A stretch of 64,000 bases of DNA, taken from positions 88,192 to 152,191 of the forward strand of contig JBCNUW010000002.1 in the NCBI GenBank assembly GCA_039630575.1. The letters are read 5' to 3'. Position 1 is the first letter of the stretch. Every line of letters starts with the position of its first letter. This DNA comes from Candidatus Hydrothermales bacterium (GTDB lineage: Bacteria > Hydrothermota > Hydrothermia > Hydrothermales > JAJRUZ01). Position numbers: made by a program. This document shows positions 21,301-24,300 of this stretch, piece by piece.

Positions 21301-24300
21301 TCAAAATAATTTTAAAATTTTAAAATAATAATTTAATTATTTTAATATAAAAATTCTTTTTTTTCAAGTTTAGCTTCTCTAAATGAACTAACCTTCATCC
21401 AAATTCCTGCCTTTCCTTTTGTGTGTGATCTTAAAACAGTAACATATCCAAAAGTATTTTTAAGGGGCATCTCAGCAACTATTTTTATAATGTCAAAACC
21501 TTGTAAAATATCCTTTTCTATTATTTCTGCTTCTCGCTGCATGAGATCCTGAATCACATTCCCGATAAATTCGTGTGGCACAGTTATCTCTAAATAAGAA
21601 TAGGGTTCAAGTAATACGGGTTCCGAAGTTTTTATCAATTCTTTTCCAGCCTCATGTATTGCTAATCTCAAACCTAATGGAGTTGTTCTTTCTATATTAT
21701 ATACTCTTTTAAGAATCATTTTTACATCTATTAACGGGTAACCTGCTATTACACCAAAATCAAGAAGCTCTTTCATAGAGCTATAAGCCACTTCTTTCAA
21801 CTCTCCTTCTAAATTCAAGTTTTCATCTATCAAAATTTCGTTTCTCATAGAGCTTCTTATTGGTTCAACTTTTAATAGTACTTTACCGTACTGTTCCTCT
21901 CCACCTATATTTTTCTTGATTTCTTTTATAATTTCTCCACTTATACTTATACTCTCCCTATAATGAACCTGAGGTTTTAATGCTCTAAAATCTAATTTAT
22001 GGTCTCTTTTTAACCTATCCAATATAATCTCAAGATGAAGCTCTCCCATTCCTGATATTATAATTTGACCGGTTTCCTCGTCAATTTTTAAATTAAAGGT
22101 TGGATCCTCTTCTACCATCCATTTTAATCTTTCCTCTATTTTTTTGAAATCTTTTGAAGAAATTGGCTCTATAGCCTGTGAAACTACGGGTTCAGGAAAA
22201 AGCATCTCTTCATATAAAATTGAGTGTTCATGTGAACAAATAGTGTCTCCAGTCTTTATTTCTTTTGGACCTACTATTCCAACTATTTCACCACATATAG
22301 CTTCCCTTATTGCGTTTTTTTTATTTGCATGAAGTCTGTAGAGACGTTGAATTCTTGTAACTTCATTTGTTCTTGGATTATATATCTTCTCCCCTTGAGA
22401 AATTTTTCCTGAATATATTCTTACATAACACAACTTACCCATATCTTCAAAAATTTGAACCTTAAAAACAACTCCACTAAAATGGTCATTTGGATCAGGA
22501 TTTCTAAAAATTTCATTTCTAGTTAAAGGATCTATCCCTCTTATTTTTCCTCTATCAATTGGAGATGGCAAATATTCACAGATTGCATCTAAAAGTGGTT
22601 GAATACCTTTGTTTTTTAAGGCTGAACCAATCAAAACTGGTAAAAATCTTTTCTCTAAAACTCCCTTTCTTATCGCATTGTTAACTTTAAAAGAGTTTAC
22701 AAAGCCCTTTTCATAATATTCATCTGCAATACTCTCATCTATTTCCGAAAGAGTTATAATCATATCTTCATAATAATTTTTAGCATCTTCCTTTAGACTA
22801 TCTATCGGTAAAAAAGAATATTCGATTCCTAATTCATCTTTATCCCAGAGTATTTTTTTATTTTCAACAAAGTGAAAAACACCTAAAAATTGAGTTTCCA
22901 AACCAACTGGCCATTCAAGTAAAAGAGGTTTAATTTTAAATTTTTTTTCAATTTGATTCAAAACTTTTAAGTGGTCAGCACCCTGTCTATCCATTTTATT
23001 TATGAAAGCTATTCTCGGTACATTAAACTTTTCAGCTTGTCTCCATATTGTCTCAGATTGTGGTTCAACTCCCTCTACTGCTGAAAAGATTATCACAAGA
23101 CCGTCAAGAATTCTCATAGACCTTTCAACCTCTACTGTAAAATCTACATGTCCAGGTGTATCAACAATGTGTATTAGGTAATTTTTCCATTCGCAAAAAG
23201 TTGCAGCAGCCTGAATTGTAATTCCTCTCTCTTTCTCCTGAATCATATAGTCCATTGTGGCTGTACCCTCATCCACCTCACCCATTCTATGTATCCTATG
23301 AGTATAAAAAAGAATCCTCTCAGTAGTTGTAGTTTTACCTGCATCTATATGAGCAGCAAAACCGATATTACGTATTTTACTTATGTCCATTTGGCCAATT
23401 TTTGGAATTTAATTTTAAAAAAATTAACTTTTTCTTTTAAAAAAAAATTTTATACTTTTTACCATCTAAAGTGTGCAAAGGCTCTGTTTGCCTCTGCCAT
23501 TTTGTGGGTATTTTCTCTTATCTTAACTGCTCCGCCTTCATTATTTGCAGCACTTATTAACTCCTTTGCCAACTTCTCTATCATTCCTCTTTCTCCTCTC
23601 TCTCGCGCTGATTTTATAATCCATTTTATAGCAAGAGAAACTTGCCTTTTCGGTCTTACCTCAACTGGCACCTGATAGGTAGCTCCTCCAACTCTCCTCG
23701 GTCTCACCTCAAGAGTAGGCTTTACATTCTCTATTGCTTTTTCAAAAACTTTTAATGGATCTTCACCTGTAAGATCTTGAATTCTCTTCATTGCATTATA
23801 AAATATTTTCATCGCAATACTTTTTTTACCATCCCACATCAAGTTGTTAATAAACTTCATAACAAGGGGTGAATTATAAATAGGATCTGTTGGTATTTTT
23901 CTTTCAGGTGCTCTTCTTCTTCTCATATTTTTTAACCCTCCTTCTTTTTCCTTTTAGTACCATAAAGACTTCTTGAACTTGCCCTATTTGCCACACCTGC
24001 ACAATCATAAACTCCTCTAACTATATGATACTTTACTCCAGGTAAATCTTTTACTCTCCCTCCTCTAACAAGAACGACTGAGTGTTCTTGAAGGTTGTGC
24101 CCTTCTCCCGGTATGTAGGCAATCACCTCTCTACCATTCGAAAGTCTCACTTTAGCTACCTTCCTTAAAGCTGAGTTTGGTTTTTTGGGGCTAGTTGTAT
24201 ATACACGTATACAAACTCCTCTTTTTTGTGGACATGATTCAAGAGCAATACTTTTAGATTTTTTTCTCTTCTTTTTTCTTTTATGTCGTATAATTTGGTT

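Follow-up and report, generated by a model that had tools for sequence, protein, structure and literature searches.

The genome of this Candidatus Hydrothermales bacterium encodes only two EF-G proteins, and neither combines the catalytic histidine of switch II with an intact domain IV tip. The fusA product of the str operon retains the GTPase motifs and has an eroded tip; an EFG II protein encoded on a second contig has an intact tip and lacks the histidine. We put the probability that fusA recycles ribosomes and that EFG II is the main translocase at roughly 60%, a functional reading that is well supported by patterns of sequence conservation. The arrangement itself is real, widespread and repeatedly evolved. 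In about 50 good-quality WOR-3 genomes from several lineages there is no EF-G with both features. Thus, either the assumption that the tip is needed or the assumption that the histidine is needed must fail in living cells. Positions given for fusA and its neighbors (Table 1) count along the window, the whole 64,000-nucleotide stretch of DNA that was analyzed.

The two EF-G genes

The gene order around fusA is rpsL-rpsG-fusA-tuf-rpsJ, the str-operon location typical of EFG I (three of the genes we take to be rpsL, rpsG and rpsJ from their sequence features). As in EFG I, the protein has motifs G1-G4 and the catalytic His (AHIDAGKTT, RGITI, DTPGH and NKMD), and it scores 710 bits against TIGR00484 (cut-off 659). 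The P-loop Asp, RGxT, DxxGH and NKxD are all retained in 52/52 fusA proteins of the class Hydrothermia. The translated gene and these relatives bear out the genome-wide survey's note, which had called the G motifs canonical. The str-operon context that it described holds for this genome, where rpsG and tuf adjoin fusA, but not class-wide: rpsG or tuf adjoins fusA at 41 of the 52 loci, and neither occurs in the fetched flanks of 8/8 loci in family f8 and 3/5 in f7. Automated annotation labels the eroded fusA as an ordinary EF-G, so similar cases elsewhere are easily overlooked.

Table 1. Features of fusA and its surroundings, with positions along the window.
Feature	Position	Strand	Remarks
rpsJ (S10)	19712..20035	-	translation
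tuf (EF-Tu)	20042..21256	-	404 aa counted from ATG
T-loop-like leader motif, between fusA and tuf	21278..21288	-	
fusA, str-operon EF-G, 682 aa	21342..23390	-	GTPase motifs canonical; domain IV tip eroded; RRF-contact residues retained
Domain IV of fusA, aa 473-590	21621..21974	-	fold retained in AlphaFold model; 36% of canonical-invariant positions retained
Loop II of fusA, aa 562-571	21678..21707	-	N, R and P at the positions of E. coli H583, D586 and E589; Thr570 at that of S588
Loop I of fusA, aa 492-502	21885..21917	-	Asn in place of Gln (E. coli Q507); GG retained
G3/switch II DTPGH of fusA, catalytic His81	23148..23162	-	His in 52/52 Hydrothermia fusA
G1/P-loop AHIDAGKTT of fusA, aa 13-21	23328..23354	-	Asp and Lys in 52/52 Hydrothermia fusA
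rpsG (S7)	23459..23926	-	translation
rpsL (S12)	23932..24312	-	translation
T-loop-like leader motif, upstream of rpsL	24342..24352	-	

In family f1 only, about 100 genes have a motif resembling a tRNA T-loop 28-35 nt ahead of their start codon. The set includes rpsL, tuf, frr and the gene for EFG II, and excludes fusA. The motif is separate from the EF-G split, because the split also occurs in families that lack it.

The alterations at the tip of fusA affect both domain IV loops. Loop I reads IKKNIGGEEQYG and loop II reads RVYNIERTT. Relative to T. thermophilus EF-G, QTGGRGQYG of loop I has become NIGGEEQYG, and SYHEVDSSEM of loop II has become VYNIERTTPL with one residue deleted; S587 and S588 (E. 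coli numbering) are both Thr. The loss of SYHEVDSS reported by the survey is evident from this alignment, and the conserved loops I and II of EFG I are absent. Its description of both loops as degenerate is correct for the key residues of loop II and for the Gln of loop I, but loop I keeps both tip glycines. The domain IV profile PF03764 matches fusA at 39 bits (E 6.9e-10) and the second EF-G at E 7.5e-46, the same disparity as noted before. Among Hydrothermia, Q-x-GG or H-x-x-D is retained by 0/52 fusA proteins, and both motifs are retained by 35/35 EFG II proteins, none of which has the His. The class-wide contrast drawn by the survey is thus reproduced with larger numbers. The glycine pair of loop I is kept by 26 of the 52 fusA proteins and lost in the other 26. 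Loop I sequence is otherwise freely variable, domain IV is the fastest-evolving part of the protein, and Thr occupies the S588-equivalent position in at least 85%. An AlphaFold model (22-sequence alignment, mean pLDDT 83.9) predicts an intact five-domain fold and loop I hairpin. Foldseek searches with this model matched EF-G structures in general and did not separate recyclers from translocases, and a structure search of the ESM Atlas returned generic domain IV/V clusters only.

The EFG II gene (G000:C8:40090-42090, 666 aa) sits among non-translation genes. Its start, previously placed at 42144, is most likely at C8:42090, which gives the length of the database protein. We identified the P-loop GHSGCGKTTL, RKITI and DCPGF, with Phe replacing the catalytic His, and intact loops, as the survey had stated. 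As in EFG II, the P-loop has Gly instead of Ala and Leu instead of Thr, and the RGITI motif is relaxed. The protein scores 802 bits against the PRK12740 subfamily profile (cut-off 583) and falls under the cut-off of TIGR00484, the tree puts it with Thermus EF-G2 on the EFG II side, and the best PDB match of its G domain is 1wdt. G4 is TKMK (Lys for Asp) and G5 is GDSL, in place of the NKxD and gSAx of the Margus 2011 definition, and the genome has no fully canonical EF-G (EFG I or an spdEFG pair) beside it.

These substitutions are general in the phylum: all WOR-3 EFG II proteins that were read (54/54) have Phe or Tyr in place of the His, lack the G4 Asp and carry Asp or Glu instead of the G5 Ser. 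A homologue search gave 69 further EFG II-like proteins, with the G4 Asp in 55 and an acidic G5 residue in none. The WOR-3 proteins are a lineage-specific variant of EFG II. Guanine specificity is reported to be set by the G4 motif (bioRxiv 2026.05.25.727771). Possible roles of the acidic G5 residue are to stand in for the lost Asp, to close off the pocket or to alter the base preference. Phosphate and Mg binding are plausible, because the P-loop Lys (54/54), switch I Thr or Ser (53/54) and DxxG (54/54) are retained. The survey had also called EFG II catalytically dead, which is not established: EF-G-2 of T. thermophilus, with DAPGY in switch II, likewise lacks the His and is reported to hydrolyze GTP in a ribosome-dependent way and to have low poly(Phe) activity (PMC9067457). 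Loss of the His is thus no proof of inactivity.

Distribution and history in WOR-3

A census of GTPases in the genome (94.7% complete, 95 contigs) using tblastn, phmmer and PF00009 identified the two EF-Gs, EF-Tu, IF2 and three weak small-GTPase matches, in agreement with the earlier statement that no protein has both the His and an intact tip. The gene for RRF is present, in the region C2:52543-53034. A recount reproduced the reported distribution in the order Hydrothermales, with the fusA/EFG II pair in 10/11 genomes and EFG II only in G017 (67% complete). The near-closed genomes G056 (4 contigs, 99%) and G057 (3 contigs, 100%) have two EF-Gs each, as claimed; their third PF00679 match is a 600-aa LepA frame. 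Three kinds of EF-G occur among the 64 genomes (12 families) of the class, namely the eroded fusA, EFG II and a third, canonical copy that is not in the str operon. The survey had seen third copies in some families. We found them in five, full-length in 29/32 genomes of f5, f7, f8, f9 and f12. With two different protein queries, no canonical third copy was identified in the 32 genomes of f1-f4, f6, f10 and f11. The missing canonical EF-G is not an assembly gap. The fragmented state of this genome and the third copies of five sister families might suggest that a canonical gene exists and was left out of the assemblies, but its absence from 32/32 genomes of seven families, and by PF00679 from the two near-closed ones, makes this highly improbable.

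The phylum is WOR-3 according to database names. We surveyed 272 of its genomes and counted as good the 181 with a completeness of 90% or more and a contamination of 5% or less. The pattern, defined as two EF-G matches with a single PF03764 match at E<=1e-25, occurs in 50/181 by hand tally, and both copies were read in 26 of the 50. The class contributes 24 and families f13, f19, f22, f29, f31 and f41 the other 26. The survey had noted neither this spread in the phylum nor the missing G4 Asp of EFG II. The cut-off undercounts, since G064 and G104 pass it despite visibly eroded loops; G106 is counted with the loops of its fusA unread. Five genomes with two EF-Gs and one strong domain IV were left out, namely G228, G031 (with a canonical copy), G087 and G149 (fusA intact) and G011 (third copy in the family). 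The loops of fusA are recognizable in most other WOR-3 families. EFG II is present across the phylum with or without a canonical copy, and its retention thus signals no extra essentiality. One genome, G071 (96% complete), encodes the eroded fusA and no other EF-G; gaps of this kind are to be expected in a few genomes of such completeness. The 31 Poribacteria genomes mostly have two strong domain IV matches and a weaker third, and do not show the pattern.

Based on domains I-III alone, the 52 Hydrothermia fusA form one clade and the WOR-3 fusA form one group (SH-aLRT 95) in which eroded and intact forms are intermixed. The state changes seven times among 36 families on the domain I-III tree (a quick PMSF tree), and monophyly of 11 eroded fusA is rejected (p-AU 1.1e-7; 28 rows, LG+G4). 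We conclude that tip erosion arose several times. It also occurred in families without any third copy (f13, f19, f29, f31 and f41). Third copies of Hydrothermia are a single clade (97) within ordinary EFG I, and were either ancestral and then repeatedly lost or acquired once and then spread. In a quick tree with long branches, and with references that exclude Borrelia and planctomycete EF-G, WOR-3 fusA lie near third copies of deltaproteobacteria and Poribacteria (SH-aLRT 96); the deltaproteobacterial ones are presumably spdEFG2. The fusA protein scores 446 and 418 bits against EF-G1mt and EF-G2mt, vs. 629 and 525 for canonical EF-G. Partial or broken WOR-3 frames (G001, G004, G033 and G149), duplicate or masked references and a frame-split Thermus fusA were removed ahead of counts and trees.

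Recycling, translocation and the alternatives

Residues that contact RRF were taken from a cryo-EM preprint on M. smegmatis EF-G1:RRF, whose numbering is identical to that of M. tuberculosis 7cdw. Hydrothermia fusA retain E408 (52/52), T/S440 (52/52), E541 (48/52) and Y551 (52/52). E408 is found in 0/35 EFG II proteins, in which T440 is L, E541 is K and K575 is E (each 35/35), and in 0/21 canonical third copies. As judged from these positions, the copies with an intact tip have lost predicted RRF-facing residues and the tip-less copy has kept them. Some of these residues may instead be structural. The contact stretch E586-K590 and the stretch 571-575 are altered in fusA, and WOR-3 EFG II outside Hydrothermia retain E541 in 16/19 and K575 in 15/19. 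In E. coli EF-G, loop I is reported to be dispensable for recycling, deletions in loop II to abolish it and S588P to impair it, S588 being the single loop II residue described as important. The Thr at the S588 equivalent of fusA would fit a recycling role, though loop II is one residue shorter. Given the effect of the E. coli deletions, an eroded loop II alone does not fit a recycler.

Constraint on the two proteins is a mirror image. Between Hydrothermia families, the G domain of fusA is 62% identical and its domain IV 37%, vs. 40% and 74% in EFG II. At 45 domain IV positions near-invariant in 34 outside canonical EF-Gs, fusA proteins keep 42% and EFG II proteins 76%. Over five genome pairs, dN in domain IV is 0.044-0.26 for fusA and 0.004-0.047 for EFG II, with dN/dS for fusA domain IV of about 0.1-0.15 where dS is measurable. 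Both proteins are under purifying selection, and domain IV of fusA is relaxed, not neutral. The idea that domain IV of EFG II is tighter where it is the sole intact tip gave a mixed result: this domain is looser in f7, f8 and f27, and in f9 and f12 it is equally constrained (distances 0.08 and 0.03) despite a canonical copy. Codon usage gives no information on expression of the EF-G genes, as ribosomal-protein genes barely stand out from background.

In the favored reading, the two jobs of EF-G would be divided between two genes. The fusA product would be a ribosome-activated GTPase that is kept mainly to split post-termination ribosomes with RRF and is no longer useful for tRNA translocation. 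EFG II would bind the pre-translocation ribosome, its intact tip entering the decoding center and moving the codon-anticodon duplex forward, and would be the main housekeeping translocase in lineages without a canonical EF-G. It would probably be driven by binding energy, with GTP hydrolysis weak, absent or unusual. The H92A mutant of EF-G is reported to support multi-turnover translocation, with hydrolysis needed mainly for EF-G release, and single-molecule work is described as compatible with translocation powered largely by binding energy. Release without hydrolysis is reported to take about 20 s in E. coli. Since this is slow, EFG II would need weaker binding, His-independent hydrolysis or help. 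In favor of the division, H583K, S588P and E589A are reported to impair translocation by E. coli EF-G, and the EF-G2 proteins of T. thermophilus and B. thetaiotaomicron are precedents reported to translocate.

The survey had proposed this division of labor. The RRF-contact split, the mirror-image conservation and the recurrence in the phylum support it, but the dead GTPase was unjustified and intact loops are no guarantee: M. smegmatis EF-G2 is reported not to rescue E. coli fusA-ts and to be dispensable (bioRxiv 2026.05.25.727771), so translocation does not follow from sequence-intact loops. Other observations weigh against the division as well. The known EFG II proteins are reported to be slow or inactive translocases (low activity in T. 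thermophilus; B. thetaiotaomicron EF-G2 reportedly translocates, slowly), and a 20 s release would not keep pace with bulk translation. Conservation of domain IV is described as a general property of EFG II (PMC3150367), and the domain is equally constrained in f9 and f12. The altered RRF stretch of fusA, the E541 and K575 mostly kept by EFG II elsewhere in the phylum, the lone eroded fusA of G071 and the non-translation neighbors of EFG II also count against it.

Alternatively, fusA may still be a bifunctional housekeeping EF-G with a remodeled tip, with EFG II in an accessory or stress-related role like that in Bacteroides or mycobacteria. Of the two EF-Gs, only fusA has a complete catalytic site, and its gene lies in the str operon; its domain IV keeps the predicted fold and loop I hairpin, and dN/dS there is low. 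In E. coli, the majority of single tip mutants are reported to retain translocation at a rate 3-10 times lower, and fusA retains the glycines of loop I. Surveys describe EFG I or an spdEFG1/2 pair as indispensable and translocation as unlikely to be the main job of EFG II (PMC3150367, PMC4342817), and EFG II as always accompanied by another EF-G (PMC3150367). We nevertheless consider this alternative unlikely, because no new conserved motif has replaced the tip in a domain whose loop I varies freely, and several fusA substitutions coincide at positions where single mutants are reported to be dominant-lethal or frameshifting in E. coli. The canonical third copies of five families, with an intact tip and eroded RRF contacts, also suggest that fusA needs a translocase partner.

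Somewhat less likely still is shared translocation, in which EFG II would do the frame-keeping step and fusA, besides recycling, would reset or displace it or take part of the flux. This would suit a pair that retains complementary halves of the canonical machine, and the reported need for GTP hydrolysis mainly at release. However, EF-G-type factors use one common factor-binding site, which both would have to occupy, we found no precedent, and retention of fusA is already explained by the RRF-contact pattern.

A stronger version of the division between a recycling fusA and a translocating EFG II is tentative and less likely than not: that several WOR-3 lineages independently gave all translocation to a His-less EFG II with a rebuilt guanine pocket, routine translocation proceeding without GTP hydrolysis or with another nucleotide and the GTPase-competent EF-G being reserved for recycling. 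If EFG II were the sole translocase, one GTP per codon would be saved or re-routed in a growing cell. The proteins are natural test cases for the role of GTP hydrolysis in translocation and for separating the translocation and recycling surfaces of EF-G.

Comparison with known EF-G systems

That EF-G functions can be divided between paralogues has been described before. Searches of an open-access library with few subscription papers returned neither the present allocation nor any report of genomes with EFG II as the only EF-G with an intact tip. Translocation and recycling are reported to be divided between paralogues, as proposed here, in spdEFG1/spdEFG2 of Borrelia and in EF-G1mt/EF-G2mt, and the recyclers spdEFG2 and EF-G2mt, like fusA, retain the G motifs and have an altered loop I (PMC3150367, PMC8203779). 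In those recyclers a loop I tip glycine is replaced (PMC8203779), whereas fusA of this genome keeps both glycines and half of its relatives have lost them. The translocase of the spdEFG and mitochondrial pairs is described as having the catalytic His, unlike the EFG II that carries the sole intact tip here; spdEFG2 is partnered by the spdEFG1 translocase, and the only partner of fusA is EFG II.

The EFG II proteins of T. thermophilus (1wdt), B. thetaiotaomicron and M. smegmatis share with ours the P-loop GHxGxGKTTL, a relaxed G2, an aromatic residue for His, the G' deletion and a conserved domain IV, but in those organisms, unlike this one, a canonical EF-G is also present. In published work, EFG II proteins are described as translocating slowly or in an accessory role. 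In Pseudomonas aeruginosa the str-operon copy EF-G1A is reported to be a recycler and EF-G1B the sole translocase, an allocation similar by location; however, both are described as EFG I, 84% identical and GTPase-active (PMC3832671). Canonical EFG I shares with fusA the str operon, G1-G4, a TIGR00484 score above the cut-off and the RRF contacts, and differs from it in having the tip motifs.

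T-loop-like motif in gene leaders of one family

The motif GGTTCRAxxCC, which resembles the tRNA T-loop, occurs in gene leaders of the studied genome and is specific to its family (f1). Genome-wide there are 170 copies, tRNAs counted in, against 9 in the reversed sequence. In 99 genes the motif lies on the sense strand 24-48 nt upstream of the ATG, with a peak at 28-35 nt. Judging by their translations, we take these genes to include rpsL, tuf, frr, efp, dnaK, rpsA and that for EFG II, the only EF-G outside the str operon. A strict pattern of this type gave 25-77 matches per genome in f1; in each of the 58 remaining genomes of the class it gave 0-14, most of which are tRNAs.

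For 40 of the 99 genes the upstream gene is at most 60 nt away, and the pair flanking the motif is complementary in 67 of 99 (51 expected). The 16S anti-Shine-Dalgarno sequence is intact, and spacing of the motif is narrower where a Shine-Dalgarno sequence is absent downstream. No Rfam family matched the motif in the window, and a literature search found no description of it. The motif may be an undescribed translation-initiation element.

Motif copies and other features of the window
Feature	Window position	Strand	Remarks
GGTTCRAxxCC	21278-21288	minus	between fusA and tuf
GGTTCRAxxCC	24342-24352	minus	upstream of rpsL
GGTTCRAxxCC	35301-35311	minus	
GGTTCRAxxCC	30561-30571	plus	
GGTTCRAxxCC	48257-48267	plus	
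S10 operon end and cell-shape cluster	about 14300-16700 (C12:102522-104859)	minus	presumably rplP (L16) as last S10 gene, then mreB-led cluster (named by their translations)
361-aa ORF	24950-26035	plus	presumed fusion of Sua5/TsaC-type and low-molecular-weight phosphatase domains (judged by sequence motifs)

Other translation GTPases

LepA (EF-4) was not found in the studied genome. It is present in only 47 of 121 sampled genomes of the phylum, and was not found in those sampled in f1 (0/4), f2 (0/3), f10 (0/3), f32 (0/15) and f35 (0/12). A whole-genome search of the studied genome gave no match to TypA, RF3 or SelB. In five single-contig genomes of family f27, matches were limited to EF-G, EFG II, EF-Tu, IF2 and SelB-like proteins.

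EF-G copies in other lineages

Two EF-G records are broken, each probably through a sequencing error: that of Thermus parvatiensis fusA (L222/L277) falls into two frames, and EFG II of the single-contig genome G149 (L130) stops at 509 aa.

EFG II proteins of families f7 (L098-L101) and f8 (L109-L112) are long-branched and shorter (most 627-659 aa), with decayed P-loop and G4 in f8; they occur alongside a canonical third EF-G. Poribacteria and two deltaproteobacteria have, in addition to an EFG II and a canonical EF-G, a third EF-G (L283-L285) that is canonical in its GTPase motifs and eroded at the tip. Of 31 Poribacteria genomes, the majority gave three matches to domain IV.
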